In this document: positions 35,901-59,539 of the stretch, piece after piece
Layout: each line of letters opens with the position of its first letter
How positions within the stretch are numbered: the stretch's first letter is position 1
NCBI GenBank assembly: GCA_041653535.1
Contig: JBAZFH010000002.1
Location: forward strand, 173,011-237,010
Length of the DNA stretch: 64,000 nucleotides
Origin: Patescibacteria group bacterium
GTDB lineage: Bacteria > Patescibacteriota > Patescibacteriia > JACRDY01
Reading direction: 5' to 3'
Notes under the pieces: generated by a model
Told to the model about the DNA's origin: nothing
Database searches by the model: none
What the model saw: the letters and a program-made list of their open reading frames with translations, nothing else
Made by a program: the position numbers and the translations under genes

Positions 35901-38342
35901 ATGAAAAGACTTTTCCAGTCCAAACATTTTTGGCCGGTTTTGATTGTTGTTTTGGCCGGTTTGGCGGTTTTTACTTGGTTTAAGGGCGATTTGATTTTTA
36001 GTTATGGCGACGTGAGGTTCAATTTTTCTCCTCTGGAAACTTTTAAAAACTATTTTTATACTTGGAGCAGAGAAGATACCGGCTCGCCGGTAATACAGGC
36101 GATGCCGTTTATTTTTTACCAAATTTGTTTGGCTATTTGGGCAAAGATCGGTCTGCCATTATTTTTATTCCAACGGTTGGCTTATTATTTTTTGTTTGTT
36201 TCCGGCGGTTTGGGGGTCTATGTTTTGTTAACTACTGTTTTTCGCGGCGAACGACGTTATTTAATAGGGCTGTTAGCAGCTCTTTTTTATATGTTTAATA
36301 TTTATGCTCTAGTTATGGTTTGGGGCATGGGTATCCAGATTATTTATTTTTATCCTTTTTTGCCATGGTTGCTAACCCTTTTTATTAGGGGGATAGAGGG
36401 TGGGAAGGTGATAATCTATTTGCTTCTTTTTTCTCTGCTCAATTTTTTAGTCGCTATTGCTTACAGTAACGCTTCTTATGTGGTTTTAGTCTGGTTGCCG
36501 ATTTTTGCTTATTTTATTTTTTATTTGTTTGTTAATCGTCGTGACCGGCAAAAGGTCAGGGTCGCTTGTATTTTTACAGCTTTATTGGTGGTCGTTTGGT
36601 TATTGCTAAACCTTTATTGGTTAGTACCTTTTGTCTATGATATTTCTTCTTTTTCTTCAGCCGCTTTGAAAAATGCAGCTTATTCTCACAGTTTGGGCGA
36701 GACGGTTCGGGGTGCGAGCGTGACGGCACATTTGTCTAATGCCGTCAGACTTTTTGGCTATCAGCCTTTTGATGATAATTTTTCTTATGCGCCAGGAGAT
36801 TATTTTCATTCGTATTCGCCGGTCTATAACGGCAAAATATTTTTTACTATACTTAGCTATACTATTCCGCTGCTAGCTTTGGGAAGTTTATTATTTTTAT
36901 TTAAAGAAGAGAAAAAAGAAAAAAGGCGTTTAGTGTTTTTTTTGTTGTTTTCAGTTGCCGCTTTATTTTTGTATAAGGGATCGCAACCTCCGTTTGGAGG
37001 CTTATATGTTTGGGCAGTAAACAAGTTTTCTTTGTTTGGTGCTTTTCGTCATCCGATGGGGAAATTCGGCACGTTTCTTGTCTTGGGTTATGCTGTCTTG
37101 ATCGGCTACACTCTCAGCGAAATTTATTTGTGGTTAAAGAAGAAAATAAATGCAACTAATGCCAAAACAGTTTTGGTTGTTATTTGTGTTTTATTGTTTG
37201 TTATTTATCAGTATCCATTTTGGCAAGGAGATGTTTTTCATGAAAAAGGACTAATTTCTCGGTCAGCTTTAGTGGGCGTTCCTGATTATTATCGAGAGGC
37301 GGCTGGCTGGCTGGCGACGCAGCCGGAAAATTTTAGAATTTATCCTGTGCCTGAGACGGGTTTTTTTGGTACCGCGTTGCGTTGGGATAACGGTTACGAT
37401 GGAGCTGATCCCGCCTATCCTCTTTTATTACGATCGGTAACGCATTTGATGAATGAAAACGGAATCGAAATAAAAATTTGGGACGAAATTTCAGCCGAGA
37501 CGGTTAACGAGCAAAACGCGGCATTATTGATGGGACTGCTAAATACTAAATATGCTATGGTGAGAAAAGACGTGGCGAAAGAATATTTTAATATGCCGAA
37601 AGTCACTTTTGATCTGGCCGTGAAGCATTTGGAAAAAGAAGAAATAGCCGGCTTAAAATTCGATCGGAATATTGGTCAGTTGGATTTTTATTTGTTGGAG
37701 GATAAATATTTTTATCCTCGTATCTACGTTCCGACATTTTGCGCTCTAAGCTCCGATTGGTTGCAAGCCTTGAAATTAGTCAACACTAGACTGGAAAAAG
37801 ACAAGATAGCGATTTTTACTTCTACGGATCCGGAGAAAACCTTTGGTCAGATCCGTAAAGATTCAGCCTTTGATTTTAGTGCTACGGCGGTTTTGGACGG
37901 CAAAAAAGAATCATTGGAAAATCTGACGTTGAAAACGGCACCAGACATAAAATTTGAAAGAATAAACCCGACAAAATATCGAGTCGAAGTTAGTAATGCC
38001 CAAGGTAACTTTCTTTTGGTACTGTCAGATAGTTTTAATAATGAATGGAAAGCCTATTTAATACCTGATACAAAGCGGGTTAATAGTTTTTTTGGTCAGA
38101 TTGCCGAAACGTGGAGTTTGCAGCCGATTGCCGATGATAAGCACTTTTGGGTTAATAAATACGCTAATGCTTGGTATGTGGAGCGACCGGAACAAAAAGA
38201 GGACTTTACCATTATTTTAGAATTTTGGCCGCAGCGCCTAGTTTATTGGAGCTTGACCGCAAGTGTCGTTGCCTGGTTGGTTTTTATTATAGTATTGATT
38301 ATTGTTAGCCGAAAAAAAAGAAAGTCAATTAAAGATATTTAG
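35901..38342 (+). CDS. Large polytopic membrane protein, GT-C-like (AftD/DUF3367-like) with extracytoplasmic C-domain and C-terminal anchor
   Basis: 813 aa. N-terminal GDLIFSYGDVRFNFSP...WSREDTG loop, about 14 TM helices, a soluble C-domain, and a final TM. Paralogous to 54459-57677. Confidence 0.5.
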   Translation: MKRLFQSKHFWPVLIVVLAGLAVFTWFKGDLIFSYGDVRFNFSPLETFKNYFYTWSREDTGSPVIQAMPFIFYQICLAIWAKIGLPLFLFQRLAYYFLFVSGGLGVYVLLTTVFRGERRYLIGLLAALFYMFNIYALVMVWGMGIQIIYFYPFLPWLLTLFIRGIEGGKVIIYLLLFSLLNFLVAIAYSNASYVVLVWLPIFAYFIFYLFVNRRDRQKVRVACIFTALLVVVWLLLNLYWLVPFVYDISSFSSAALKNAAYSHSLGETVRGASVTAHLSNAVRLFGYQPFDDNFSYAPGDYFHSYSPVYNGKIFFTILSYTIPLLALGSLLFLFKEEKKEKRRLVFFLLFSVAALFLYKGSQPPFGGLYVWAVNKFSLFGAFRHPMGKFGTFLVLGYAVLIGYTLSEIYLWLKKKINATNAKTVLVVICVLLFVIYQYPFWQGDVFHEKGLISRSALVGVPDYYREAAGWLATQPENFRIYPVPETGFFGTALRWDNGYDGADPAYPLLLRSVTHLMNENGIEIKIWDEISAETVNEQNAALLMGLLNTKYAMVRKDVAKEYFNMPKVTFDLAVKHLEKEEIAGLKFDRNIGQLDFYLLEDKYFYPRIYVPTFCALSSDWLQALKLVNTRLEKDKIAIFTSTDPEKTFGQIRKDSAFDFSATAVLDGKKESLENLTLKTAPDIKFERINPTKYRVEVSNAQGNFLLVLSDSFNNEWKAYLIPDTKRVNSFFGQIAETWSLQPIADDKHFWVNKYANAWYVERPEQKEDFTIILEFWPQRLVYWSLTASVVAWLVFIIVLIIVSRKKRKSIKDI

Positions 38343-38409
38343 AAAATTGAGAAAAATTTGGCTATCTTTACAAGAAAAGTTAATGGGAGTAGACTGTAAA
38401 AACTAAAAT

Positions 38410-39567
38410 ATGTCCAAGAAAATCTACATAATAGCCAATACCATGATAGAACCGGGCATGAGCGGCGGTAATAGAATTTTTATTGAATTAGCCAAAAATT
38501 GGGTAAAAACCGGTCATCAGGTTACGGTTTTTACCTCTCCTGTTGGTAAGCAGATTTGTCAGGCTAATGATTTGATGGGCGCTCGGTATGTCACTTGGCC
38601 GGCACAAAATTTTCGCTTTTTAGGGATTTTCGGTCAATACTTTGTCGGTGTTTTTTGGGGTTTATGGAATGCGCTAAAAAGTTGGCGCGGATTTGAAAAT
38701 GTTATTGTTTGGTCAACGTCTGATTTTTGGCCGGATGCTTTATCGGGATTACTTTTTAAAATCATTAACCCCAAATGTTTCTGGATTGCTTCGGTATTTA
38801 TGTTTGCTCCGAATCCTTTCAAACAGACTAAATTTTACGTCAAAGCTTTTTTACATTTTATTACCCAGAAACCAATTTATTTTCTCAGTAAAAAAATAGC
38901 GCAGATGATTTTTGTTACCAATGACGGTGACAGAGATTTTGTTGTAGGCGATGGAGTGCCGGCCGAGCGGGTAGTATCGATCCGCGGCGGCGTTAATCTT
39001 GATTATATTCAAAGTATCAGAGCCGAAGGAAAAAAATATCTTGGTATTTTTATGGGACGGGTGCATCGCCACAAAGGAATTTTAGAGCTGCTTGATGTCT
39101 GGAGAAAGGTTTGTGATGTTATGCCGCAGGCCAAGCTAGCAGTGGTAGGAGAAGGTCCACAGGAAAAAGAAGCCAAAGAAAAAGCGGAAAAATTGGGATT
39201 AAAAAATAATGTCGTATTTTTTGGTTTTGTGGATGGTGACTACAAATATATTTTGATGAAAGAAAGTCAGATGTTTTTACATTCCTCGGTCTGGGATAGC
39301 GGCGGCATGAGTGCGGCCGAAGGCATGGCTTGCGGTTTGCCGGTAGTTGGTTATGATTTGCCGGCTTTCAAAACATATTATCCTAAAGGTATGCTCAAAG
39401 CGCCGCTTGGAGATCGGGATAAATATGCCGAATTGATTATCAGTCTAGCAAACGATGTTAGTCTTTATCAAAAGATCAGCGCTAAAGCTCTAGACTGGGC
39501 AAATGGTTGGGACTGGGCGGTAAATGCTAGTCGTATTATGCAAGCGATTGATGGAATTTTAAAATAA
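38410..39567 (+). CDS. GT4 glycosyltransferase
   Basis: GGNRIF..., GRVHRHKGI, and SVWDSGGMSAAEGMACGLPVV (EX7E region). Confidence 0.75.
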   Translation: MSKKIYIIANTMIEPGMSGGNRIFIELAKNWVKTGHQVTVFTSPVGKQICQANDLMGARYVTWPAQNFRFLGIFGQYFVGVFWGLWNALKSWRGFENVIVWSTSDFWPDALSGLLFKIINPKCFWIASVFMFAPNPFKQTKFYVKAFLHFITQKPIYFLSKKIAQMIFVTNDGDRDFVVGDGVPAERVVSIRGGVNLDYIQSIRAEGKKYLGIFMGRVHRHKGILELLDVWRKVCDVMPQAKLAVVGEGPQEKEAKEKAEKLGLKNNVVFFGFVDGDYKYILMKESQMFLHSSVWDSGGMSAAEGMACGLPVVGYDLPAFKTYYPKGMLKAPLGDRDKYAELIISLANDVSLYQKISAKALDWANGWDWAVNASRIMQAIDGILK

Positions 39568-39574
39568 TTTTTAT

Positions 39575-40240
39575 ATGTTTAATGAACAAAAAGGTTCTAA
39601 GGCTTATCCTGAATATGATCCGACTGACGAGGACTCGGAGATTTCTCGGCTTTATAAGTTAATCAAAGAACAACCGTTGGAGCAGTCAGATGCTGCTGTG
39701 TGGTTGGAGGGCGAAGCAGACGACCGCAATGTAAAGTGTATAAGGATCGTTCAGAGTGATTATGCACCCAAGCTAGTTTTATCGGGTGGCGTTGATAAGG
39801 CGCCAACGGATATTCCATCTCAAAAAATGGCCGAGGTGTTCGTTCAATCTGGAATTAGTCGTGATCAAATCATTATAGACCCTACGTCTTTGAATACGAA
39901 GGAGCAGGCAGTAAATGTTTTGCGTTTAGTTAAAGATAATGATTGGCACAAAATAATCTTAGTAGCTAATCCATATCACCAGATTAGAGTTTTTTTGACT
40001 TTTTTGGCGGAGCTTAAAAAACAAGGTATGGACAAGATGGTTAAAATCATCAATGCCCCAGCGGATTTGAATTGGTTTAGGACCACAGCTCGAGGTCGCG
40101 ATGAAGTTGATTTGTTTAACGAAGAAGAAATCCCTCGGTTGATAAAATATGGTCAGGATGGTGTTGATGGCAAAAAAGCAGACGTCGCTAAGTTATCAGA
40201 GGGCTTAGATTATATAGAATATTGGAATAATCAATTATAA
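39575..40240 (+). CDS. DUF218 (YdcF/SanA-like) domain protein
   Basis: LVLSGGV...TKEQA...ILVANPYHQIRV pattern. Confidence 0.5.
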   Translation: MFNEQKGSKAYPEYDPTDEDSEISRLYKLIKEQPLEQSDAAVWLEGEADDRNVKCIRIVQSDYAPKLVLSGGVDKAPTDIPSQKMAEVFVQSGISRDQIIIDPTSLNTKEQAVNVLRLVKDNDWHKIILVANPYHQIRVFLTFLAELKKQGMDKMVKIINAPADLNWFRTTARGRDEVDLFNEEEIPRLIKYGQDGVDGKKADVAKLSEGLDYIEYWNNQL

Positions 40241-40249
40241 ATTTATTTT

Positions 40250-41266
40250 ATGTTCAGAGGCAAAAGAATACTAGTTACCGGGGGGACGGGATCGTTTGGC
40301 CATCAAATAGTTAATGATTTGATTCCTTACGAACCGGCCGAGATACGGGTTTTTTCCCGTGATGAAAAAAAGCAGCACGACATGCGTTTGGAATATCCGG
40401 ATGTTAAGTTTTTAACTTTTGTTATTGGTGATGTTCGCGATGCTGCGTCAGTACGATCAGCAATGAGAGGAATTGATATAGTTTTCAACGCCGCGGCATT
40501 AAAACAAGTTCCTTCCTGCGAATATCATGTTATCCAGGCAGTCAAAACCAACATTCTTGGTCCGCACAACGTTATCGAAGCGGCTTTGCAAGAAGACGTT
40601 GAGAAGGTGATAACTATTTCAACAGACAAAGCGTGCGAACCGATCAACGCCATGGGTATCAGTAAGGCAATGCAAGAGCGTTTGTTTGTTTCGGCCAACC
40701 TTGAAAAAGGTAACAAAAGAACAGTCTTTGCCGGCGTTCGTTATGGCAACGTGCTTGGTTCTCGCGGGTCAGTAGTGCCGCTATTTAAACAGCTTGCCGA
40801 AGAAGGCAAGGATTTACCGATTACCGACAGACTAATGACGCGTTTTATTATTACTTTACCTCAATCAATAGAGCTAGTTTTTTATGCAGCCGAGCATGCT
40901 GTCGGTGGTGAAATGTTTGTCAAAAAAATGCCAGCGCACACCATCACTGATTTGGCAGAAATTATCTTAGCCCGACACGGCAAAAATGAAAATCAAAAGG
41001 TAGTAGAAAAAGGAATCCGTCCCGGAGAAAAGATTCATGAGAGTCTGGTTTCTCCTTCCGAGTCACTGCACTGTATTGATCAGGGCGACTACTTTGTTAT
41101 TTTGCCGCAGATATCACTACCCGATGTAGAAGCTAAATACGGTTCGTTAATAAACAATCTCCCTGGTCCGACGCAGCAAAAATCTTTCCGCTATTCTTCG
41201 GAAAATACTCAACGTCTAAGCAAAGAAGATCTTGGGGAGCTACTAAAAAATGAAGGCTGGATCTAA
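40250..41266 (+). CDS. UDP-GlcNAc 4,6-dehydratase-type SDR (PseB/CapE/FnlA/CapD-like)
   Basis: ILVTGGTGSFG, FSRDEKKQ, and ISTDKACEPINAMGISKAM. Confidence 0.8.
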   Translation: MFRGKRILVTGGTGSFGHQIVNDLIPYEPAEIRVFSRDEKKQHDMRLEYPDVKFLTFVIGDVRDAASVRSAMRGIDIVFNAAALKQVPSCEYHVIQAVKTNILGPHNVIEAALQEDVEKVITISTDKACEPINAMGISKAMQERLFVSANLEKGNKRTVFAGVRYGNVLGSRGSVVPLFKQLAEEGKDLPITDRLMTRFIITLPQSIELVFYAAEHAVGGEMFVKKMPAHTITDLAEIILARHGKNENQKVVEKGIRPGEKIHESLVSPSESLHCIDQGDYFVILPQISLPDVEAKYGSLINNLPGPTQQKSFRYSSENTQRLSKEDLGELLKNEGWI

Positions 41267-42173
41267 AATTTTAATTACTGGCGGTAGCGGCATGCTGGGT
41301 AGCAGCCTATTTTTTACGTGGCAGGAAAAAGCTGACATTTATCTTTTGTCGCGTGAGTTGCCGGCTTACGATCAGGAAAAAAGTGTTAGCGTTGATCTAA
41401 CCGACGGGCAAAAAACTCTTGAAGCGGTAAAGAAAATAAGTCCAGATATTATCGTTCACACCGCGGCAATGACTAACGTTGACTATTGTGAAGATAACCC
41501 AGAGCAAGCGCGTGCGGTTAATGTAATGGCAACAGAAAATATTGCTTTAGCTACCAAAGAGATTGGCGCCAAACTGGTTTATATTTCTACTGATTTTGTC
41601 TTTGACGGCAAAAAAGGAAATTATACCGAGGAAGATGTGCCAAATCCTCTCAGCGTCTATGCTAAAACAAAATGGGAAGGCGAAGAAGTGGTGAGAAATA
41701 TTTTAACTGACTGGTTGATTATTCGCACTACCATCTATGGCTGGAATATTTTACAAAAAAGTTGTTTTCCCGAAGCGGTAATCAATGCTTTGAGTCAAGG
41801 TAAAGAGTTTACCCCGTTTGAAGATCAATACAGCACGCCGGTTTTTACCGAAACTCTGGCCGATGTTTTATGGCAGTTGCTGGAGAAAAATAAAATCGGA
41901 ATTTATAATGTTACTTGCAATGAAATTTTGTCTAAATATCAGTGGGCGCAGATGGTTGCTGATGAGTTCGGTCTGGATCAAAGCAGCTTACGACCGGTCC
42001 CTTTTGCGTTAGCCATACTGCGAGCGCCACGTCCGGTTAACGCTTCTTTAAATAACGCCAAGTTGCTTAGTGAACTAGGTTGGGATAAAATTAGTCTGAA
42101 AGACGATATAAAGAAAATGCATCTAAGGCAAAATTTTTATGGTCAATATAAAAAATCTAGAGAAAAAAGTTGA
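41250..42173 (+). CDS. RmlD-like sugar-nucleotide 4-reductase (SDR)
   Basis: ILITGGSGMLGS, ISTDFVFDG, and YAKTKWEGE. 17-nt overlap with the upstream gene. Confidence 0.7.
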   Translation: MKAGSKILITGGSGMLGSSLFFTWQEKADIYLLSRELPAYDQEKSVSVDLTDGQKTLEAVKKISPDIIVHTAAMTNVDYCEDNPEQARAVNVMATENIALATKEIGAKLVYISTDFVFDGKKGNYTEEDVPNPLSVYAKTKWEGEEVVRNILTDWLIIRTTIYGWNILQKSCFPEAVINALSQGKEFTPFEDQYSTPVFTETLADVLWQLLEKNKIGIYNVTCNEILSKYQWAQMVADEFGLDQSSLRPVPFALAILRAPRPVNASLNNAKLLSELGWDKISLKDDIKKMHLRQNFYGQYKKSREKS

Positions 42174-42525
42174 TGATCGCGGCTGGTTAGCTGAAATAAT
42201 CCGCGCCGAAGATGTCGAGCCAAAAGAATTCGGTCAGTTTTTGATTACTACCGCCAAACCAGGGATTACCAAAGGCGGTCATTACCACAAAAGAAAAAAT
42301 GAATGGTATTGTGTCATTCGCGGTAAAGCCGAGCTTTATCTAAAAAATTTGACTAGCGGGCAGGAGGAAAACGTAATTTTGGACGAAAATAATTTGCAGT
42401 TAGTAAAAATCGAGCCAAACGTTTTTCATAGCATTAAAAATATCGGTGAAGACGAAATGTATCTCCTTGCTTATACTACGGAGGTGTTCAACTCCGAAGA
42501 TCCGGATACCTTTACTCTAAGTTAA
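42139..42525 (+). CDS. Cupin-fold sugar-nucleotide epimerase/isomerase-like protein
   Basis: 128 aa. DDRGWLAEI...KGGHYHKRKNEWYCVIRGKA...FHSIKN is a cupin His cluster. Confidence 0.55.
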   Translation: MVNIKNLEKKVDDRGWLAEIIRAEDVEPKEFGQFLITTAKPGITKGGHYHKRKNEWYCVIRGKAELYLKNLTSGQEENVILDENNLQLVKIEPNVFHSIKNIGEDEMYLLAYTTEVFNSEDPDTFTLS

Positions 42526-42531
42526 TATAAG

Positions 42532-43416
42532 ATGAAAAAAATATTTTGCCCGATCTGCGGTGAGGGTAAATACGAAGATTTTTTAGACACCCGAGATGCT
42601 AGATATAGTCAAGCGGGCGTTTTTAAATTGGTTAAATGTATCCAATGCGATATGGTTTTTTTAGCCGTTATTCCCGAGGGAGACGAGTGGAAAAAGTTTT
42701 ACCCGGATGACTATTGGGCGGAAGAAGATAGTTTTTTCAATAATTTTGTTATCAATTTTTTATTGGCTAATTTTTTGCGGCTGATAAAAAAATATAAAAA
42801 ATATGGTAGCGTTCTTGATGTCGGGTGTGGCACCGGTAGAGTTTTGGAATATTTAGCGAGTAAGGGATGGCGGGTTTGGGGTCAAGAAATATCATCAGTT
42901 GCTTGCCGCCAAGCTGAGAGAAGAATAGAAAATGTTTATTGTGGTCCGCTTAAAGCCGCGACTTATCAAGAAAAATTTTTTGACGTGATAATCCTAAATT
43001 ATGTTTTTCATCAGATGATCGATTTAGCCGAAGAGCTGGCCCAAATAAAAAAAATAATCAAAGATGATGGAATAATGGTTTTTAGTATTCCCAATGTTGA
43101 CAGTCGTCAGTTGACGATAACTCAGCGGGATTGGTTTTGTATTGATTCTCCTCGCCATATTTATTTTTTTTCCCCAAAAACGATCAAAAGATTTTTTGAA
43201 AAAGAGGGACTAGAGATTGTTGATATAAGTTTCCCGTTATTTCAATTGCCACTCGATTTTTTTCATGGTCTGACTGCAAAATATTTTGGCAATAAAAAGG
43301 GGACAAAATATTGGTTTTTGTTTTTTCCGCTTTTAGTTTTTTCGTTGTTAATAAAAGTTATACCAGCCTACCGTAGTTGTATGACAGTGGCATGTAAAAA
43401 ACAATATGTCGAATAG
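42532..43416 (+). CDS. Class I SAM methyltransferase with N-terminal zinc ribbon
   Basis: CPICG...CIQCD, then VLDVGCGTGRVL. Confidence 0.7.
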   Translation: MKKIFCPICGEGKYEDFLDTRDARYSQAGVFKLVKCIQCDMVFLAVIPEGDEWKKFYPDDYWAEEDSFFNNFVINFLLANFLRLIKKYKKYGSVLDVGCGTGRVLEYLASKGWRVWGQEISSVACRQAERRIENVYCGPLKAATYQEKFFDVIILNYVFHQMIDLAEELAQIKKIIKDDGIMVFSIPNVDSRQLTITQRDWFCIDSPRHIYFFSPKTIKRFFEKEGLEIVDISFPLFQLPLDFFHGLTAKYFGNKKGTKYWFLFFPLLVFSLLIKVIPAYRSCMTVACKKQYVE

Positions 43417-46617: not shown

Positions 46618-46622
46618 TCAAT

Positions 46623-48573: not shown

Positions 48574-48590
48574 AAAATAATTGATATTCT

Positions 48591-49253
48591 ATGTCCAGAA
48601 TAGATGATTCCCGTCAGGGTTACGACGAACTTCATAAAGATCAAGGCTTTAGCGAGGAGCCGGAGTACTATGAAGTTGTCGGCGCGTTAGTCAAGGGTAA
48701 AAAAAGCGTAGATATTGGTTGTGGCTATGGTTTTATCGAAATGTATTCTCCAGAAACAGTGGCGGTTGATTTTTCCGAAGAAGCGTTAAAAGTAGCGCAG
48801 CAAAATGGCGCGCGGCAAACAGTGAAAGCGCCAGCCGAAGAACTGCCGTTTGCCAGCGATGAGTTTGAAGTAGCGACAAGTATTGGTGTTTTGGAACACT
48901 GCGCCGATCAAAAAAAAGCAATTCAAGAAATGGTTAGGGTTTCCAAAATTCAAATTTTAGCAGTTCATGCCAAGTTGCCTTATGGTTTAGAATTAGTACG
49001 CCGTCCGCTCATTAAATTTTTTGGTCTCAAAGATCAGCCAATCGAAGACCCTCTGACTATGAAACAGATTAAGCAGCTGCTCAAAGACGCCGGCTCGCGC
49101 GTTATCGTCGAAGGTTTTTGGAACTATATTGATCTGCGCTGGCTTTGGAAAAAAATTCCTTATAGTTTGGTGAAATGGCCGTCTCATCATTTTGTCATTG
49201 CTATTAAAACACCAAACCTCGAACGTAAATTTTTAGGAGAAAATGAAAGATAA
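48591..49253 (+). CDS. Class I SAM-dependent methyltransferase
   Basis: SVDIGCGYG and IGVLEHC. Confidence 0.65.
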   Translation: MSRIDDSRQGYDELHKDQGFSEEPEYYEVVGALVKGKKSVDIGCGYGFIEMYSPETVAVDFSEEALKVAQQNGARQTVKAPAEELPFASDEFEVATSIGVLEHCADQKKAIQEMVRVSKIQILAVHAKLPYGLELVRRPLIKFFGLKDQPIEDPLTMKQIKQLLKDAGSRVIVEGFWNYIDLRWLWKKIPYSLVKWPSHHFVIAIKTPNLERKFLGENER

Positions 49254-50376: not shown

Positions 50377-50377
50377 T

Positions 50378-51574: not shown

Positions 51575-51575
51575 T

Positions 51576-52127
51576 ATGGTAGAGCTGCAAAAAATAAACT
51601 TTGGTTGCGGGCACAAACATTTGTCCGGTTTTATTAATGTTGATAATAACCCCAACGTCAAAGAAGCTGATGTTGTTCATGACTTAAATATCTTTCCTTA
51701 TCCTTTTGCTGATTCTTCGGTTAACGAAGTAATCATGGACCATGTTTTGGAACACTTGGACGATCCGATTCGGGTGATTGAAGAGCTATATCGAATCAGT
51801 GCTGACGGGGCGATGCTTTATATCAAGACGCCGCATTTTTCTTGCAACTGGCTGCACCCGGGGCACAAAAATGGGATTAGCACGATGCTTTTCAGCTATT
51901 TTGTTCATGACGGAGATGATTACTACGGAGATTGTTACTTTGAAGTAAAGAAAATCAAGTTAAGCTGGTTGCGTCCAGCAAACAAACATTCGGTTGCGCT
52001 CAATACGCTTTCCCGGATAATTAATTTTTTCGCCAACCTCAATATTGGTTTCTGTCAGCGAGTTTGGTGTTACTGGGTGGGGGGATTTGAAGAGTTAGAA
52101 TTTGAAACCAAAGTAATAAAAAAATAA
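51576..52127 (+). CDS. Class I SAM-dependent methyltransferase (Methyltransf_11-like)
   Basis: INFGCGHKHLSGFINVD and MDHVLEHL. Confidence 0.6.
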   Translation: MVELQKINFGCGHKHLSGFINVDNNPNVKEADVVHDLNIFPYPFADSSVNEVIMDHVLEHLDDPIRVIEELYRISADGAMLYIKTPHFSCNWLHPGHKNGISTMLFSYFVHDGDDYYGDCYFEVKKIKLSWLRPANKHSVALNTLSRIINFFANLNIGFCQRVWCYWVGGFEELEFETKVIKK

Positions 52128-52128
52128 A

Positions 52129-53346
52129 ATGACAGAGTTTTTTTTCTCGGAAATAGAAAAATATAAATATCCGGATTTTCTGATTGATATTATCCAGGAT
52201 TCTTTGAATATTTTTCTTGGTAATATCGGTGAAGACAATCTTGCCGCCGTTGTCCTTCATGGTAGCACCGCGAAGGGTAAAATTACTATTATTGGTGATC
52301 AGCTCTACAGCGATGTGGAGTTTTTTGTCTTTGTTCGCCGTAGCGTTAGCGGCGCGGCAGCAGAAAAAATAAGAAACGATTTGGTGGCGATAAAAGAAAA
52401 GTACCATCAAAAAAACCGTTTTTTTCATGTCGACTTTATTATTAAGAAAAAGTGTTTAATGCGGTTTTATCAGAGAAACCTTTTGATCTATGAGCTGAAA
52501 AACGCCGGTAAGGTTTTGTACGGTGATCTGAATATTCTTTCTAATATCCCGAAGATCGATGAAAAAAACATTAATCTGAGAGCCGTCAACGATATTATGC
52601 TTATGCGCTTGAGGGTTTTCTTGAAAGATTTTAGTTTTAATCCTGGTGACAAAGAGGATTATTATGCGTTACTAAAAAATGTTTATCAGTATTTAATGGC
52701 GGTGGTTGTTTTTAATAAAGGGATTTTGTTACCTAGCGGTTATGACAGGTATAAATATGTCGAAGCGCACCACGAGGACTATTTATTTTTGGGGGACAGA
52801 TTTTTTTCCAATTATTATTTTTCCAGTCGGATGAAATTTCCGATGCACTTTGCGGAAAACGAGAGAAACGTGTCTTTTGATAAGGGGTATTTTGATTACG
52901 CCAAAGAAGTGGTGGGCGGCATGTTTTTAGTTCTGAGACTTTTACTTCAAAAAAACAATCTGTCCCAGTCAGAGATAAATGAGGAGAACGTTTTTTCTGT
53001 TTTAGACAGATCAGCCGATATTTTTAATGACAGCTGGTTCGATGTTTATAGTCTGGCTTGTCGGGTGCGCTATCTCAAGCAAGTTGTTTTATCGGGTAAG
53101 ATTTTTTCTCTATTTAAAGCTTTTAGACCGATAAAAAAGAAATTGGTTTTGGCGTATCTGGCGCTTTGTTTTGCTCTCAAAAAACAACTAAATGGCGAAT
53201 CACCAGATTTGTATTTGCAGTTGGCGGCAAAATATACCAAGCAACTCAGTTACGAAAATACAAAGTTTTCTCTGACAGGGGACTTTAAAAAAGATTTTTA
53301 TTTCCTTAAAGCGGAGCTGCTCACTATTTATCGAATTGTTTTTTAA
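52129..53346 (+). CDS. Hypothetical protein with possible minimal nucleotidyltransferase (Pol-beta-like) N-domain
   Basis: VVLHGSTAKGK...SDVEFFVF resembles the GS...[DE]x[DE] NTase signature. The rest is helical. Weak call. Confidence 0.3.
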   Translation: MTEFFFSEIEKYKYPDFLIDIIQDSLNIFLGNIGEDNLAAVVLHGSTAKGKITIIGDQLYSDVEFFVFVRRSVSGAAAEKIRNDLVAIKEKYHQKNRFFHVDFIIKKKCLMRFYQRNLLIYELKNAGKVLYGDLNILSNIPKIDEKNINLRAVNDIMLMRLRVFLKDFSFNPGDKEDYYALLKNVYQYLMAVVVFNKGILLPSGYDRYKYVEAHHEDYLFLGDRFFSNYYFSSRMKFPMHFAENERNVSFDKGYFDYAKEVVGGMFLVLRLLLQKNNLSQSEINEENVFSVLDRSADIFNDSWFDVYSLACRVRYLKQVVLSGKIFSLFKAFRPIKKKLVLAYLALCFALKKQLNGESPDLYLQLAAKYTKQLSYENTKFSLTGDFKKDFYFLKAELLTIYRIVF

Positions 53347-53347
53347 T

Positions 53348-54454
53348 ATGGCTAATCTGGTTATCTTCATCGACGGTTTTCCTTACGATCAGCTGGCGCA
53401 GACCGATTTTTTGAATAATCTCAAAAAAAGTCGTCGTATTCCCGGTATCGGCTATAGTTTTAATCTTTATTTGGAGATGTTTGCTGGACTAGTGCCAGAT
53501 CAAAGCGGTGTGTTTTGTGAGTTTGCTTTTGAGCCGCAACGGTTGCAAAATAAAACCGTTCGTATTTTAATGCCGGTTTTGAAAATTATTGATAAACTCG
53601 GTATCTTTTCTTCTCTTTTTAAACGTTTTGTCACAGGGTATTGTGGTTTTAAGTTTCACAACGTGCCGTTTGCCTACCGATATTTTTTCACCGACGCGGG
53701 AAAACAAATCCAACGTCCTGATCTGCGGGAAAAAACTATTTTTAAGAAAATAGAAAAGTTAAGTAATGGTAAAATTTTTGATCATAGCATTTGCTGCTAT
53801 ACCGACAAAGAAAGCGTGGGTCTTTTTTATCAAAATATTGACGCCGATAATCTTTTTATTCATTTCACCGAGCTGGATGGAGCCGGTCACGCCGGATTTT
53901 TGAGCGCCGAATATTTTGCTAAGCTAAAATGGCTTGATGATAAGCTGAAAAATATCTGGCAAAAATATCAAGAGCGGCATCCGGGAGCAAATCTTATTAT
54001 TTTGTCAGATCATGGTTTTTGCTCGGTTGAGAAATTTATCCGACCGGAGTTTGAAAGAATCGGCAGCTTAAAAGCCGGTAGAGATTATTTTTATTTTGTT
54101 GATACGACTATGGTTAAGTTTTGGTTTTTATCACAAGCGGCAAAAGAAGCGGTTTTGAAATATTTAAGCGGTTTGGATTTTGGCAGGGTTTTAAGTGAAC
54201 AAGAACGTTTGGCTTCAGGAATAGCAGACAAAAAGTTTGCTGACGAGATTTTTTTACTTCAGCCCGGCATTGCCTTTTTCCCTTCTTTTTACGGTGGAAT
54301 CATTAAGGTTAAAGGAGTACACGGTTACGGTCCGGAGTGTAGCGGACATCACGGAATATTTTTGTATAATACGCCAAGGCGGGTTGAAATTGCGCCTATC
54401 ATCAATAACAAAGAAACATATCAGTGCATTTTAGATATTTTAGATTTAAAATAA
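53348..54454 (+). CDS. Alkaline-phosphatase-superfamily protein (nucleotide pyrophosphatase/phosphodiesterase-like)
   Basis: VIFIDGFPYD, ELDGAGHAG, and ILSDHGF metal-site motifs. Confidence 0.6.
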   Translation: MANLVIFIDGFPYDQLAQTDFLNNLKKSRRIPGIGYSFNLYLEMFAGLVPDQSGVFCEFAFEPQRLQNKTVRILMPVLKIIDKLGIFSSLFKRFVTGYCGFKFHNVPFAYRYFFTDAGKQIQRPDLREKTIFKKIEKLSNGKIFDHSICCYTDKESVGLFYQNIDADNLFIHFTELDGAGHAGFLSAEYFAKLKWLDDKLKNIWQKYQERHPGANLIILSDHGFCSVEKFIRPEFERIGSLKAGRDYFYFVDTTMVKFWFLSQAAKEAVLKYLSGLDFGRVLSEQERLASGIADKKFADEIFLLQPGIAFFPSFYGGIIKVKGVHGYGPECSGHHGIFLYNTPRRVEIAPIINNKETYQCILDILDLK

Positions 54455-54458
54455 TAAG

Positions 54459-57400
54459 ATGATTGTCTTGGAAAAAATAAAAAAGTATTGGCCGATTTTA
54501 TTTATTTTAGTTTTGGGTTCTTTGCCCTTGGTTTGGTTTAGAGATGGTCTGCTTATCGCCGGCGGCGACAATGATTGGTATCTTAACCCGGTAAAGCTTT
54601 TTCACGATGCCCTTTACACCTGGTCAGGGCTAAAAAGCGCTGGAGAAATAAATTTTTTGGTTTGTCATATTTTTCCATTGCCTGCTTTTTGGGCTTTATT
54701 AAAACTGGTCGGTTTGAGTTTGGTTAATATCCAGAGGCTATGGACTATTTTGATTTTCGTTACCCCGGCTCTATCGATTTATTATTTGGTTATCAGATAT
54801 TTTGGCGCAGACAAAAAGGAGGTTAAATATCAGCTCGTCGGACTGCTAGCCGCTATCCTCTATAGCTTCAATATGTTTTTGATTAATAGTCCGCTCAACT
54901 CCGTTGCTTCTCCGGTGCTGGCAATCATGCCGCTGATGCTTTGGTTCTTTATTTCGGCTTTGGAGCAAGAAAAATTTTCTTTCAAATATCCGGCGGCTAT
55001 TAGCGTGTTATCTATTTTCCTCTTTTTTTCGAACACCAATCTGGCGGAAGTTAGTATTATACCACTGGTCCTCGGTCTTTATTTGTTATTTTTTGTTGCT
55101 TTCAACTTTAAATTTTTTAAAATAGTTCATGCTTTCAAAGTAGTCGTGGCTAGTGTAGTCGCATATCTGGCGGTTAACTCCTGGTGGTTGCTGATAATAT
55201 CTTTTTCTTTTGTTGAAGCTGCTTCCAAAGCAGGAGAAATTGTAAAAAGTATCAGTTTTGTCGAACGTAGTTATTTGTTTGAAGTATTTAGATTGATGGG
55301 TTTTTGGGCTTTTAGGATCAAAACCGGCGCGGGGCTTTCAAACGTGCCGTACAGTGATTTGTATTATCAACCTTTACTTATAATCTTGACCTACCTAATT
55401 CCACTAGTGGTATTTTTCGCTTTAATTTTTCGACCGCGGGACAAGAAGATTATTTTTTTCTCCCTGATTTTTTTGCTGGGAATATTTTTAGCCAAGGGGA
55501 CCAATGAACCGTTTGGTGTCGTCTATGGTTTTTTGTTTGAAAAGATCCCTGGATTTTGGGTTTTTCGCAACCCTTACTCCAAATTTATGCCTTTGACGAT
55601 ATTTGGTTTTTCGATTTTGTATGGTTTATCTGCCGCCGATATATATTATGGAGCAAAAAAGTGGTTTGTAACCAAGATAAAAAACCGGCAAAGGGCGGTA
55701 GCGATGGCTTTGATTATCCTTGTGTTTTTGGGGTTACTGCCAATTGCGGCTGCCTGGCCAATACTGACCGGTAAATTTTTGTCCGATGCTTCCTGGTATG
55801 GTACACCTGAAAAATCAATGCATGTCCAAGTGCCGGACTACTGGCAGCAAGCAAACAAATGGTTTACAGAAAACGACCCTGAAGGTAGAGTTTTGCTTTT
55901 ACCCAAAGCAGGATATGGGCATTGTTATAAATGGTTGTCGGGAATATGCACCGGAGGATATGTTGCCAACTATCTTATACCAAATCCGATTATCAGCTAT
56001 CCCAATCTAAAAATAGATTCTCCGTACGATAACACGATTGATAGTCTTTTTTCTTACATTAAACCGCAGACCAGGGTTGATCTTGCCGAATTACTGGGTG
56101 TTTTTAATATTAAATATATCTTGCAGCAAGACGATTTACTGTGGCAAAGGGCGGGCACCGATTCTTATTCGCCGGAACAGATAAAAAATATTTTAGCGGA
56201 GCAGCCGGGGATAGAGTTTATAAAAAATTTTGGCAAGTTGAATCTTTATCAGATTAAAGGTGATTATTACGTGCAGAGAATTTTTGCCCCACGTAAAGTT
56301 AGTTATACGTCTAGCAAAGATCCCCTGGAGACAAGTCAGGCGGTTTTACTCAACAAAAAAAACGTGACGGAAGAGTCGATGTTCGAAATAAAAGATGGTT
56401 TGGATAGTTCAGACAAGGATTTGATAGCAACAAAAAGACTAGCCGATACTAACGGTTATAGTCTAGATATACCAGCGCAGGCAGAATATGATTTTTATTT
56501 GATTCAAAAACCAATCTCGCCGCAAGTTGTGGTCTGTGCCGGATGCCCGTCGGGTTTTGGTATTAGTCTTGGCGATGAATATTCGGGGAAACAATTATTT
56601 TTTACTAAAGCAATAAGTGGTGGAGTTTACTTTGATAATGACAAAAAGATTTCTTTGTCCTGGCGTCGGTCGATAAAGATTTATCCTTTAGACGTTAATG
56701 ATGTGGGTATTGATAGTCCGATAGTCGGTTGGAGTTTTATCCAAAATGTTGGGGCGGTAGATCTTTACGGGTCGCAGCTGTCGGAAAATTTTCCCGAAGA
56801 CTACAAAACGTCATCAGAAGCAAAAATATTTTTTGCCGGTTTCCGGGATGGACAGCAACTGGGCGAAGACTGGGGGGTCGAAATTTTTCCCGATTCTTTT
56901 GAAATAGGGACTATGAAGACCAGAAGGGTGGTGGTTAGTGTGCCAGCGGGAACTAGACCCGGGGAGGGCTATCGATTCGTTTATCTCAAAAAACCAAGCA
57001 TGCTTTCCGATTTAGATTTTGGGAGCAATGTCGGCACAAGCAGTGTTTTATCTGTCGGTTCTGCAAGTCTCGCTGCCGGCAATCATCGTGTTTTATTGAC
57101 CGGACTGACCAGCGAGGATTTGGATAAAATGACTTTTGTTGCCAAGAAAAAGGTGGTGGAAGGCGGAGTGGTGGTGCCAAAAATAACATTCAAAAAAATC
57201 AACCCGACAAAGTATAAAGTGATGGTTAGTGGAGCTGTAACCGATTTTTCTTTGGTTTTTTCTGAAAACTTTAATACTTTTTGGAGGGTTTATGTCTTTC
57301 CTCAAGTATTTTTAAGCCAAAGGGAACTTTCGGGCAAGCCTTTTTCGCCAGTGTCATCAAGCGGTCCGGTAGACGCTGATTTTGTAAGCGAGGAATATGG

Positions 57401-57677
57401 CGGATCCACGCAGAATAATAATCTTACGTCGCCTTTTTACAAGACATATTTTAGGTCTTCGCTTGGCGAGCACCAGCATTTTTTGGCCAATGGTTATGCT
57501 AATGGTTGGTGGATTAAGCGACCGGACTGCCTTGAACAAGGAGATAAGTGTCAGAATTTCGAAATCATTATTGAATTTTGGCCACAAAGGATTTATTATC
57601 TCGGTGGCTTGATTTCCGGTCTGTCATTTTGTTTGATATTGTTTTATTTGATCAAAAAAATACGGTCGAGGGAATAA
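54459..57677 (+). CDS. Giant polytopic membrane protein, GT-C-like (AftD/DUF3367-like), 1072 aa
   Basis: N-terminal GLLIAGGDNDWYLNP...WSGLKSAGE loop, many TM helices, a large soluble C-domain, and a C-terminal module INPTKYKV...GYANGWWI...IIEFWPQR plus a TM anchor shared with 35901-38342. Confidence 0.5.
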   Translation: MIVLEKIKKYWPILFILVLGSLPLVWFRDGLLIAGGDNDWYLNPVKLFHDALYTWSGLKSAGEINFLVCHIFPLPAFWALLKLVGLSLVNIQRLWTILIFVTPALSIYYLVIRYFGADKKEVKYQLVGLLAAILYSFNMFLINSPLNSVASPVLAIMPLMLWFFISALEQEKFSFKYPAAISVLSIFLFFSNTNLAEVSIIPLVLGLYLLFFVAFNFKFFKIVHAFKVVVASVVAYLAVNSWWLLIISFSFVEAASKAGEIVKSISFVERSYLFEVFRLMGFWAFRIKTGAGLSNVPYSDLYYQPLLIILTYLIPLVVFFALIFRPRDKKIIFFSLIFLLGIFLAKGTNEPFGVVYGFLFEKIPGFWVFRNPYSKFMPLTIFGFSILYGLSAADIYYGAKKWFVTKIKNRQRAVAMALIILVFLGLLPIAAAWPILTGKFLSDASWYGTPEKSMHVQVPDYWQQANKWFTENDPEGRVLLLPKAGYGHCYKWLSGICTGGYVANYLIPNPIISYPNLKIDSPYDNTIDSLFSYIKPQTRVDLAELLGVFNIKYILQQDDLLWQRAGTDSYSPEQIKNILAEQPGIEFIKNFGKLNLYQIKGDYYVQRIFAPRKVSYTSSKDPLETSQAVLLNKKNVTEESMFEIKDGLDSSDKDLIATKRLADTNGYSLDIPAQAEYDFYLIQKPISPQVVVCAGCPSGFGISLGDEYSGKQLFFTKAISGGVYFDNDKKISLSWRRSIKIYPLDVNDVGIDSPIVGWSFIQNVGAVDLYGSQLSENFPEDYKTSSEAKIFFAGFRDGQQLGEDWGVEIFPDSFEIGTMKTRRVVVSVPAGTRPGEGYRFVYLKKPSMLSDLDFGSNVGTSSVLSVGSASLAAGNHRVLLTGLTSEDLDKMTFVAKKKVVEGGVVVPKITFKKINPTKYKVMVSGAVTDFSLVFSENFNTFWRVYVFPQVFLSQRELSGKPFSPVSSSGPVDADFVSEEYGGSTQNNNLTSPFYKTYFRSSLGEHQHFLANGYANGWWIKRPDCLEQGDKCQNFEIIIEFWPQRIYYLGGLISGLSFCLILFYLIKKIRSRE

Positions 57678-57682
57678 AAATT

Positions 57683-59539
57683 ATGAAAAATAAAATTATT
57701 AAAATCATAAAAGCCATGTTTAGTTGGTGGTCGGCGGGAGAGCGGATAATATTTTTAGAGTACGCCGCACTGTCTATTTTTATATTATTGCCGATATTTA
57801 AACCCGGATATATTTTTGCTCTGGACTTTACCGCCGCTCCGCATTTTGATTTTCCATCCACAGTTTCTTTCGAGTACCCGTGGTTAGTTTTTTTGTGGTT
57901 ATTAAATCTGTTTATTCCGGCGGCAGTGATACAAAAGATAATTTGCTTCGCCATTCTGTTTTTAGCCGGCATCGGTGCACATTATTTTGTCGGAAAGTTT
58001 TCGTCGACTAAATGGTCAAAATATTTTGCCGGTTTGTTGTTTATCTTTAATCCGTTAGTTTATTCTCGTTTAGCTTATGGTCAGTTTCGTTTTTTGTTAG
58101 GGTACGCTCTATTGCCGTGGTTATTTTTAGCTGGCTTGCGGTTTTTGAAACAACCATTGATTAAAAAGACGTTTTATTTAGCGCTACTCCTAACGGTTTG
58201 CGGAGCAGTCAGTCTCCATATTTTGTTTATATTTTCTTTTGTTTTTATCGCGACGTGGCTGACTCGTTTTTTTCAATCAATTTATAACAGAAATTATTTG
58301 TTTGAATTTTTAAAACAAACCGTTTTTTTATTGCTATTATTTTTGTTTTTAAATAGTTATTGGTTATTACCGGTTTTTGTCAACCATTCTAGCGTCAACA
58401 ATGCTCTGTCATCTTTTGACCAGCGGGACGTCTTTGGTTTTCAGACCAATGCCGACTCTCGCTTTGGGGTTTTTGTTAACACAGCAGCGATGTATGGTTT
58501 TTGGGGTGACAGAGAGGGTCGTTATTTTTCTCAAAAAACAGTAGTCTCTTATTGGTTTGTTTTGTTTCTAGTGTTATTATTTTTTGTTTTTTGGGGCGTT
58601 GGTTTGTTGTTTTGGAAATTAATCAAGAAATATCATCAGTTCAGATTATTGACAAACCCGTCTGTTGCTCAGCTAAAAGATGAACGATTATCGGAAGATA
58701 TTTGGCTTGCCCTCCCAATATTTTTTTGTGCCGTTGTCGCTTTGTTTATGGCTGTCGGCGTGGCGCATCCATTTTCTGCGCTGATTTCTCAGTGGTTATA
58801 CCAAAACTTTTCTTTTTATAAAGGTTTTAGGGAGCCGCAAAAATGGGTAGTGGTCTTGATTTTAGCTTATACCTATTTTGCTTCATTTGGTGTTGATGAT
58901 TTGGTAAAGAAAGCCGCCCGCGGTCTTGAGTATTTGGCCAGGAGAGCCAATCAACTAAAAACAAAGAAACCGATTTTATTTTTATTGTCAGTTTTTAGAA
59001 AAGTTTTGCCCGTGATATTTCTGATCGTTCCTTTGTTCTACAGTCCGATATTATTGCTAGGGCTTGGTCGCCAGATGTGCGTTGGTTCTTATCCGGCCAG
59101 TTGGTACGAGTCTAACGAGCTGTTAAATTCTGATCAGGAAAATTTTCAGACGCTTTTTCTGCCATGGCACATGTATCTCAATCTGTCTTTTGCTTGTAAC
59201 AAGGTAGTAACAAATCCTGCCGCTGCCTTTTTTGATAAACCATTTATAGTCGGAGACAATATTGAATTTGGAAATATTTATAACCAAAATAATCGGGCTG
59301 ATTCAAAATATGTCGAAGAAAACATATTGCAAAACAAAGGGCGGTTTACTCAAAAAGACGGCGGGGGTTTAGGAGAAGTGTTGAATACGATAAACGTTAA
59401 GTATGTTGTTTGGGCAAAAGAGTCGGATTTTTTTAATTATGATTTTGTTAAATTGGCGCCGGACTTAGAATTGGTTTATGATAGAGACAGGATTCAAATT
59501 TATAAAAATTTAAAATGGCAAGATGAAAAAAATAGATAA
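57683..59539 (+). CDS. Polytopic membrane protein, possible GT-C-type glycosyltransferase (618 aa)
   Basis: Start trimmed to ATG 57683, after the upstream stop. About 12 TM helices and a soluble C-terminal domain. Confidence 0.4.
   Translation: MKNKIIKIIKAMFSWWSAGERIIFLEYAALSIFILLPIFKPGYIFALDFTAAPHFDFPSTVSFEYPWLVFLWLLNLFIPAAVIQKIICFAILFLAGIGAHYFVGKFSSTKWSKYFAGLLFIFNPLVYSRLAYGQFRFLLGYALLPWLFLAGLRFLKQPLIKKTFYLALLLTVCGAVSLHILFIFSFVFIATWLTRFFQSIYNRNYLFEFLKQTVFLLLLFLFLNSYWLLPVFVNHSSVNNALSSFDQRDVFGFQTNADSRFGVFVNTAAMYGFWGDREGRYFSQKTVVSYWFVLFLVLLFFVFWGVGLLFWKLIKKYHQFRLLTNPSVAQLKDERLSEDIWLALPIFFCAVVALFMAVGVAHPFSALISQWLYQNFSFYKGFREPQKWVVVLILAYTYFASFGVDDLVKKAARGLEYLARRANQLKTKKPILFLLSVFRKVLPVIFLIVPLFYSPILLLGLGRQMCVGSYPASWYESNELLNSDQENFQTLFLPWHMYLNLSFACNKVVTNPAAAFFDKPFIVGDNIEFGNIYNQNNRADSKYVEENILQNKGRFTQKDGGGLGEVLNTINVKYVVWAKESDFFNYDFVKLAPDLELVYDRDRIQIYKNLKWQDEKNR

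Follow-up and report, generated by a model that had tools for sequence, protein, structure and literature searches.

The window analysed here, a 64,000-nucleotide (nt) stretch of a Patescibacteria group bacterium (contig JBAZFH010000002.1, positions 173,011 to 237,010), has a GC content of about 40% and carries nearly all of its genes on the + strand. Flanked by housekeeping genes (IF-2, ClpP, leucyl-tRNA synthetase (LeuRS), RNase HII and ComEC) lies a 38-kb operon for surface-glycan biosynthesis, which encodes three large membrane proteins of the glycosyltransferase (GT) fold class GT-C, relatives of mycobacterial AftD, that are the subject of this analysis:

21897..60350, + strand: surface-glycan biosynthesis operon, 33 consecutive same-strand genes with intergenic distances of -35 to +69 nt
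35901..38342, + strand: long AftD-family GT-C protein, 813 amino acids (aa), PF11847 score 42.1 bits (residues 44-567)
54459..57677, + strand: long AftD-family GT-C protein, 1072 aa, PF11847 score 90.6 bits
57683..59539, + strand: short AftD/MmpA-like GT-C-fold protein, 618 aa, with a GT-C core and a proximal outside domain

At the 3' edge of the operon the next gap measures 147 nt and contains a promoter-like site, and the gene after it has its own strong terminator. Pfam and NCBIfam matches showed that, in addition to the three large GT-C proteins, the operon encodes three GT2 proteins, a Wzx-type Polysacc_synt protein, a polysaccharide deacetylase, two further epimerase/dehydratases, eight class I methyltransferases, three B12-binding and two SPASM radical S-adenosylmethionine (SAM) proteins and one protein of the alkaline-phosphatase superfamily, together with five GT4 genes, one of them coding for a 774-aa double GT4. 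A set of three genes codes for a PseB/FnlA-like dehydratase, an RmlD-type reductase and a WbjC-like cupin, a trio that we take to be typical of 6-deoxy-hexosamine pathways.

With PF11847 scores of 42.1 and 90.6 bits, the 813-aa and 1072-aa proteins passed the gathering threshold of the AftD family (GT-C_AftD / DUF3367; 26 bits, whole-protein score). BLASTP aligned the two proteins with 26% identity over 649 aa (E 4e-43) and their C-terminal modules as a separate block (30% identity, E 4e-19), which confirms the paralogy and the shared module proposed in an earlier reading made from the letters alone (hereafter the sequence-only reading). In the 813-aa protein an N-terminal GT-C core leads into a soluble domain on the outside, and the chain closes with a C-terminal beta-sandwich module and one transmembrane (TM) anchor; by paralogy with the 1072-aa protein the core is predicted to contain about 11 TM helices. 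In the 1072-aa protein the GT-C core (residues 1-610) is followed by a beta-rich insert (~620-900), the C-terminal module and the TM anchor. Hydropathy agreed with the many TM helices and the terminal anchor noted earlier, as both long proteins displayed many TM segments and then a terminal TM helix with a K/R-rich tail (SRKKRKS in the 813-aa protein). Since the N-termini and the long-form C-terminal tails are K/R-rich and a single TM helix closes the chain, the soluble domain of the long forms is predicted to lie outside. No credible Pfam family was found at E<=5 for the insert of the 1072-aa protein (610-905), for either module or for the soluble domain of the 618-aa protein.

The kinship with AftD was evident from both sequence and fold. 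The 1072-aa protein alone matched Mycobacterium abscessus AftD with E 1.3e-7, and its family profile did so with E 2.8e-22. An 11-TM core, juxtamembrane helices in loop 1 and a proximal mixed alpha/beta periplasmic domain, which characterize the GT-C fold, were all found; among the fold matches AftD ranked first, followed by the oligosaccharyltransferases STT3, AglB and PglB, and the monophosphate-sugar GT-C enzymes AftA, PMT, ALG12 and ArnT were also strong matches. Transporters appeared at chance level only, in agreement with the GT-C fold assumed in the sequence-only reading. An NCBI protein with exactly the sequence of the 1072-aa protein comes from a 'Patescibacteria group bacterium' metagenome-assembled genome (MAG) and is named 'alpha-(1->3)-arabinofuranosyltransferase family protein'. 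The presumed donor of AftD is decaprenyl-phosphate arabinose (DPA); for the window proteins we rejected the arabinofuranosyl/DPA reading of this name as unsupported, because no DPA-pathway families were found among the Pfam-scanned window open reading frames (ORFs) of about 120 aa or longer and the donor synthase of the operon is GtrB-like.

Five residues, K39, D41, E251, K361 and D474, are essential in AftD (bioRxiv 10.1101/2019.12.22.885152). The first-loop motif pointed out in the sequence-only reading, G36-D37...(S/N)43-P44...W55-S56, is present in both long proteins and includes an acidic residue encoded at the following positions:

36009..36011, + strand: codon of D37 of the 813-aa protein, the conserved acidic residue of the first extracytoplasmic loop
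54567..54569, + strand: codon of D37 of the 1072-aa protein (in G-G-D-N-D), the conserved first-loop acidic residue

The conservation of this residue, which had been suggested as a check, was borne out: the D37 column (GGD or YGD context) held D or E in all 34 aligned relatives, and D48 was nearly invariant (at least 90%) among 60 homologs of the 618-aa family, in which R129, R383 and K387 were invariant. In the phmmer alignment D39 of the 1072-aa protein was paired with AftD D41, and D37, which forms the invariant acidic column, with K39. K375 of the 1072-aa protein aligned to AftD K361 within an F-R-x-P-x2-K-F motif, and an R-x-P-x(2-3)-K motif was found in all three proteins (K375 in the 1072-aa, R383-x-P-x3-K388-F in the 813-aa and R383...K387 in the 618-aa protein), so that equivalents of these two AftD active-site elements, the first-loop Asp and K361, are present. 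A regular-expression search for W(W/Y)D(Y/F/W)G or WWD returned no WWDYG-type motif in the 813-, 1072- and 618-aa proteins, and membership of the oligosaccharyltransferases was rejected for lack of this motif; the likeness to STT3, AglB and PglB is one of fold only, with neither detectable sequence similarity nor evidence for a peptide acceptor.

Like AftD of M. abscessus (PDB 6W98), the window proteins thus have the first-loop Asp and the K361-equivalent lysine, and in both the chain forms a large outside region before it enters the membrane again; the role in common is likely that of a late, outside-acting glycan glycosyltransferase. In contrast, AftD has a TM12 and a 4-helix bundle with a bound acyl carrier protein, whereas the long forms end in one C-terminal TM helix, and AftD has three carbohydrate-binding modules (CBMs), whereas Pfam recognized no CBM or F5-8 type C domains in the soluble regions here. 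AftD homologs have been reported only in Actinobacteria (bioRxiv 10.1101/2019.12.22.885152), whereas the host here belongs to the candidate phyla radiation (CPR).

Both long proteins end in the same module:

37947..38315, + strand: C-terminal module and TM anchor of the 813-aa protein (module residues ~683-782, anchor ~783-805; profile score 99.9 bits)
57171..57656, + strand: C-terminal module and TM anchor of the 1072-aa protein (module residues ~905-1046, anchor ~1047-1066)

In the 813-aa protein the module motif reads INPTKY...LVLSDSFNNEW...NKYANAW...LEFWPQ. In the 1072-aa protein the module is split by a disordered loop at 953-990, and the AlphaFold2 (AF2) model placed its strands at 908-948 and 1007-1040 with a predicted local distance difference test (pLDDT) score of ~90, followed by a helix at 1042-1069. 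The minimal module comprises about 85 residues, then a TM helix and a basic tail, and its consensus runs P-x-I-x-F-x-K-I-N-P-T-x-Y-x-V ... L-V-F-S-E-x-F ... W-K-A ... H-F-x-x-N-G-Y-A-N-G-W-x-I ... G-D-Y ... L-E-F-x-P-Q. The earlier description of this module as distinctive did not hold. It was present in 34 of 34 aligned relatives, including one CBM-bearing AftD-like protein; its profile matched 7,541 cluster representatives at E<=1e-3 (3,467 at E<=1e-10) among 1.84 billion; and it is homologous to the C-terminus of the YfhO unit (hhalign probability 94.8%, E 5.5e-8). In the longer listed proteins (700-1,200 aa) the module nearly always lay no more than ~20-45 residues from the C-terminus, and of ten full-length carriers sampled, eight matched PF11847 at E<=1e-3 and five exceeded its threshold. 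Because all 34 relatives and 7,541 representatives have it and its carriers match PF11847, the module marks a large AftD branch outside the Actinobacteria as a hallmark of the family and is no peculiarity of the two paralogs. Pfam has no model for it, and its profile gave chance-level matches only (E about 1) against PDB sequences. With the YfhO family (PF09586; lipoteichoic/wall teichoic acid glycosyltransferases) the long proteins have a homologous C-terminal module and TM anchor in common, whereas the GT-C cores of the window fall on the AftD branch, with no PF09586 match at E<=0.1 for the 813-, 1072- or 618-aa protein.

For the 618-aa gene the best start is the ATG at 57683, which lies 6 nt past the upstream stop and has a Shine-Dalgarno-like site (GAGGGA) 9 nt 5' of it; a longer, TTG-started ORF begins at 57578. 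BLASTP of this protein against the long forms was marginal (E 0.001 and 0.4), whereas hhalign of its family profile against that of the 1072-aa family gave a probability of 99.9% (E 9e-32) over 487 columns. Since the profiles align over this length, the 618-aa protein lacks no more than the distal part of the soluble region together with module and anchor, and it is a true, shorter homolog of the long forms, which goes further than the similar layout noted in the sequence-only reading. Its AF2 model was confident (pLDDT 94.2), with the GT-C core and the proximal soluble domain intact, and Foldseek returned AftD as the top match (E 1e-7, TMq 0.58), followed by oligosaccharyltransferases, AftA and PglB; the family profile found nothing among PDB sequences. 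The closest named family is MmpA: the NCBIfam model NF053599 ('MmpA family trehalose lipid delivery protein') matched with 113.7 bits (E 9e-33), residues 28-609 aligning to profile positions 6-497 of 543, and neither the 813-aa nor the 1072-aa protein matched this model. More than 160 homologs of the 618-aa protein were found in CPR bacteria and archaea, including Saccharimonadales and Methanoperedens.

MmpA (NCgl2761/Rv0226c) has been described as having no homologs outside corynebacteria and mycobacteria, save for a partial similarity to the AftD N-terminus, and has been proposed to be a membrane anchor for a complex, its catalytic activity being undemonstrated (PMC8698533). A 2026 preprint reports that aftD and mmpA lie in one conserved locus of Mycobacteriales, that MmpA may be a glycosyltransferase and that AftD has a non-catalytic partner role with TmaT (bioRxiv 10.64898/2026.07.31.741767). 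The 618-aa protein resembles MmpA in layout, with ~10-11 TM helices and one extracytoplasmic C-terminal domain, and in setting: its gene has a long AftD-like gene as its neighbour, and in the tmaT locus mmpA likewise occurs together with aftD. The two differ in their partners: TmaT-like acyltransferase and CmpL/MmpL transporter families were not found in the window, which is thus without the tmaT and mtrP neighbours of an MmpA locus and without mycolate biology. Long and short forms are therefore neighbours both in Mycobacteriales and here, which is the most interesting by-product of the analysis, and the CPR and archaeal relatives suggest that the MmpA family is not confined to mycolate producers, contrary to its original description.

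Two further genes of the operon encode candidates for the supply of lipid-linked sugars:

22462..23421, + strand: GtrB/ArnC/DPM1-type GT2, 319 aa, putative polyprenyl-phosphate sugar (donor) synthase
25896..27191, + strand: Wzx-type (Polysacc_synt) multi-pass membrane protein, 431 aa (PF01943 60 bits, PF13440 51.6 bits)

The sequence-only reading had let the cluster of GT-C genes start with a GtrB-like GT2 and a Wzx-like flippase; both proteins are real but lie 9-13 kb upstream of the 813-aa gene. The GT2 matched Synechocystis GtrB (PDB 5EKP) with a phmmer E of 1e-67 (residues 6-312 against 27-327), as well as ArnC (E 4e-31) and the archaeal dolichyl-phosphate mannose (Dol-P-Man) synthase DPMS (E 3e-18), and in NCBIfam it matched PgfS (219 bits) and ArnC (142 bits) over the full length, in each case under the equivalog cut-off. 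Two hydrophobic helices were found at its C-terminus (233-256 and 263-303), giving it the make-up of the membrane-anchored polyprenyl-phosphate-sugar GT-A enzymes of GtrABC-type systems. On these grounds it can be accepted as a GtrB ortholog and a putative polyprenyl-phosphate hexose or N-acetylhexosamine synthase. The 431-aa protein, which showed a weak NCBIfam match to the O-glycosylation flippase Wzx, is a putative flippase of lipid-linked sugars or oligosaccharides. Multi-component transmembrane glycosylation systems include GtrA/B/C, CsbB-GtcA-YfhO and GacI-L (PMC8035078). As in GtrABC-type systems, a membrane-anchored GT-A enzyme for undecaprenyl-phosphate (C55-P) sugars, a putative flippase and GT-C proteins predicted to act outside are encoded with a wall-polymer pathway. 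The systems differ in that GtrABC-type ones have one small GtrC/YfhO-type enzyme, whereas three AftD-type GT-C proteins are encoded here, in that the GT-A and GT-C genes are not adjacent here, and in that the sole flippase candidate is of the Wzx type, with no GtrA-type protein found.

Twelve related loci with 10-kb flanks were collected by exact look-up and a pattern scan (an 8-sequence alignment that gave 10 loci). They stem from Patescibacteria or 'Saccharibacteria' MAGs and from one Auribacterota MAG, and each contains two to three copies of AftD-like genes. B12-binding radical SAM genes accompanied the AftD-like genes in half of the loci (L001, L002, L004, L005, L006 and L008), several of which also contained SPASM radical SAM, GT4 and methyltransferase genes orthologous to those of the window (at most 67% identity). 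In two loci (L002, 3-5117; L004, 6530-12403) two AftD-like units are fused in tandem, giving proteins of 1,705 and 1,958 aa in which GT-C core, C-terminal module and TM anchor are all present twice, and in a database protein of 1,573 aa (P0035) a YfhO unit is fused to an AftD-like unit. A glycan cluster in a Saccharimonadales genome (L014) has the order Wzx-GT2-GT4-GT2-pyruvyltransferase, followed by a 929-aa protein, which carries the same C-terminal module and is without a Pfam match, and then by a homolog of the 618-aa protein. The locus of another MAG (L015) mirrors the window, with a 288-aa membrane protein, a 618-aa homolog, an FN3-like protein and ComEC.

Homology, fold, conserved residues, outside-consistent topology, GtrB orthology and the organisation of the operon are shown, and we consider it probable (roughly 0.7) that the three proteins are GT-C membrane glycosyltransferases of the AftD/DUF3367/MmpA superfamily whose role is to attach sugars to a surface glycan on the outer side of the membrane. 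In such a scheme the cytoplasmic GT2 and GT4 proteins, sugar-nucleotide enzymes, methyltransferases and radical SAM enzymes would build and modify a lipid-linked glycan, and the Wzx-type protein would move lipid-linked material to the outer face of the membrane. The GtrB-type GT2 (22462-23421) would load a monosaccharide onto polyprenyl phosphate, and this lipid-linked sugar would reach the outer face by a flippase that is uncertain. There, the 813-, 1072- and 618-aa proteins would transfer sugars from lipid-phosphate donors onto the glycan with the help of the conserved aspartate in the first loop and of the R-x-P-x(2-3)-K motif, which lies at the interface between membrane and soluble domain. 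In the long forms, the acceptor may be held or positioned by the beta-sandwich module and the TM anchor at the C-terminus. GT-C/AftD kinship and the GtrB-type synthase support the extracytoplasmic glycosylation proposed in the sequence-only reading; its count of exactly three steps is something we infer, as are the identity of donor and acceptor, the order of the steps, the supply of the donor to all three GT-C proteins by the GtrB-like GT2 and catalysis by each of the three.

Several observations weigh against this scheme. The 618-aa protein scored 22.5 bits with PF11847, below the threshold of 26 bits, and fell short of the curated MmpA cut-off (113.7 against 210 bits). Residues 620-900 of the 1072-aa protein gave a low-confidence model and no family match. 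In loop alignments that are uncertain at 12-15% identity, the region aligned to AftD E251 showed no conserved acidic column, and the site aligned to D474/E475 reads G-A-D-P in the 813-aa protein and G-G-Y in the 1072-aa protein, in which the D474 equivalent thus appears to be lost; among the relatives this site is variable and acidic in many. The GT2 shares an operon with the GT-C genes but is 12.5-35 kb distant, and the 10-kb flanks of the AftD-like genes in the 12 related loci contained no GtrB-like gene; an arrangement like that of the window (12.5-35 kb) would also have lain beyond their reach. An initiating phosphoglycosyltransferase (Bac_transf, MraY/WecA type), Wzy, a WaaL-type ligase and a GtrA-type flippase were not detected in the 64-kb window, so the pathway as drawn is incomplete. 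Finally, biochemistry for the family is limited to its actinobacterial members.

Among the alternatives, the 618-aa protein could be a GT-C-derived scaffold or lipid-handling accessory without transferase activity, as suggested for MmpA of corynebacteria, either as a partner of the 1072-aa enzyme or as a mover of lipid-linked intermediates; one of the long paralogs might be of this kind too. Such a role would be in line with MmpA as the top named family over the full length of the 618-aa protein, with the membrane-anchor role suggested for MmpA in place of demonstrated catalysis (PMC8698533), with the non-catalytic part of AftD beside TmaT and the common aftD/mmpA locus (bioRxiv 10.64898/2026.07.31.741767), with the recurrence of the long-then-short gene order in the Saccharimonadales locus L014, and with the missing acidic residue at the D474/E475-aligned site of the 1072-aa protein. 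We consider it unlikely, because D48, R129, R383 and K387, nearly or fully invariant in the 60 homologs of CPR bacteria and archaea, fall on the same elements as the essential residues of AftD, because the GT-C core and proximal soluble domain of the 618-aa protein are intact and confidently modelled, and because MmpA itself may be a glycosyltransferase according to the 2026 preprint. Furthermore, a lipid role of MmpA is not directly transferable to Patescibacteria. To our knowledge, mycolates have not been described in this group.

The AftD-like proteins might also transfer whole Wzx-flipped polyprenyl-diphosphate oligosaccharides, acting as a polymerase, ligase or oligosaccharyltransferase, which we regard as quite improbable. 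The presence of Wzx in a window with no recognisable Wzy, WaaL or other ligase family would fit this idea, as would STT3, AglB and PglB as the closest structures after AftD and the lack of GtrB-like genes near the AftD-like genes of the related loci. However, AftD, the nearest relative by both sequence and fold, is thought to use decaprenyl-phosphate arabinose (bioRxiv 10.1101/2019.12.22.885152), none of the three proteins has a WWDYG-type motif, a bona fide GtrB ortholog is encoded in the same operon, and AftA, PMT, ALG12 and ArnT were strong fold matches as well.

A third alternative concerns the acceptor, which could be a surface protein modified by PMT/Ppm1-like or streptococcal Pgf-like O-glycosylation, the candidate being encoded just after the operon:

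60498-61487, + strand: FN3 protein, membrane-anchored or secreted, with GY repeats and a Gly/Ser/Thr-rich linker

PgfS, the top NCBIfam match of the GT2, presumably belongs to a protein O-glycosylation system. This alternative is very improbable: PMTs are good fold matches, and the FN3 protein with its T/S/G-rich linker adjoins the operon and has a weak counterpart in the same place before ComEC in L015 (9134-10429; 34% identity over 137 aa, E 2e-4), but its gene is bordered by a promoter-like site (60379-60407) and a terminator with a 13-bp stem (61507-61535) of its own, the PgfS match reached 219 against a cut-off of 500 bits with GtrB being the better match, and the many GT2 and GT4 proteins together with Wzx point to a polymer, in keeping with the polysaccharide thought to be the acceptor of AftD (bioRxiv 10.1101/2019.12.22.885152). 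N-glycosylation of the FN3 protein was rejected, because its N-x-S/T sequons showed no enrichment (6 found, 4.1 expected, p about 0.2).

That the three proteins are probably outside-acting GT-C glycosyltransferases is a largely expected finding that leaves current concepts unchanged, as fold and family as well as the three-component logic had been established before and the automated NCBI annotation carries the family name. New are the C-terminal module, which defines a very large AftD branch and is common to it and YfhO, the wide occurrence of MmpA-like proteins outside mycolate producers, paired with long AftD-like proteins, and the placement of these enzymes in a glycan cassette that is conserved in Patescibacteria and rich in radical SAM genes. 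Very little has been learned about the envelope chemistry of Patescibacteria/CPR bacteria, and the cell surface is where they contact their hosts; AftD-type GT-C enzymes in CPR glycan cassettes provide concrete candidate genes for the assembly of glycans outside the membrane, and MmpA-like proteins beyond the mycolate producers bear on the role of MmpA in mycobacteria. A bolder and rather doubtful extension is that the pair of a long AftD-like and a short MmpA-like protein represents an ancient two-protein module of Mycobacteriales and Patescibacteria, in which several GT-C paralogs, many of them duplicated or joined as tandem fusions, would polymerise or branch a wall polymer wholly outside the membrane from lipid-phosphate monosaccharides, as in mycobacterial arabinan. 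In CPR bacteria the module would lie in a conserved cassette with many B12-dependent and SPASM radical SAM enzymes and methyltransferases, whose product would be an undescribed, heavily modified envelope glycopolymer of these episymbionts. If this were true, the ancestral role of MmpA would be glycan synthesis and not mycolate transport.

The remaining genes of the operon that bear on the glycan or adjoin the genes described above are the following:

24428-25885, 34453-35871 and 45130-46617: B12-binding radical SAM genes, interleaved with GT4 and methyltransferase genes
32769-33797 and 49243-50376: SPASM radical SAM genes, likewise interleaved with GT4 and methyltransferase genes
21897-22445, + strand: DUF6580 integral membrane protein, 182 aa (167 bits), 16 nt 5' of the GtrB-like GT2 gene
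52129-53346, + strand: 405-aa protein with a faint nucleotidyltransferase match, preceding the gene of the 372-aa protein
53336-54454, + strand: alkaline-phosphatase/phosphodiesterase-superfamily protein, 372 aa (PF01663, 41.9 bits), directly 5' of the 1072-aa gene
59523..60350, + strand: multi-pass membrane protein with hydrophobic segments, 275 aa, family unnamed, its first 17 nt shared with the 3' end of the 618-aa gene

The top NCBIfam matches of the radical SAM enzymes were HpnJ, BchE, ApyD and AprD4, all of them sub-threshold, and the set points to a glycan with unusual modifications, perhaps C-methylation or deoxygenation. For the DUF6580 protein no PDB or NCBIfam match supports a role as an established flippase or transporter; it may serve the GT2 synthase as a small partner or flippase, or be unrelated to it. 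NCBIfam gave no match for the 372-aa and 405-aa proteins, and the related loci contained neither of them. For the 275-aa protein Pfam and NCBIfam returned no match and a word-index search returned only the protein itself. It shows 28% identity to the 288-aa protein that adjoins the 618-aa homolog in L015, which suggests a fast-evolving yet positionally conserved protein and, possibly, an accessory component.

Among the housekeeping genes flanking the operon, the LeuRS ORF (15010-18474, + strand) encodes a protein of 1,154 aa, which we take to be ~300 aa longer than a typical bacterial LeuRS. Two extra domains lie in frame between its catalytic, editing and anticodon-binding domains: residues 263-368 match an IS200-like Y1 transposase domain (57 bits), and residues 538-723 a serine/alpha-beta hydrolase domain (68 bits).

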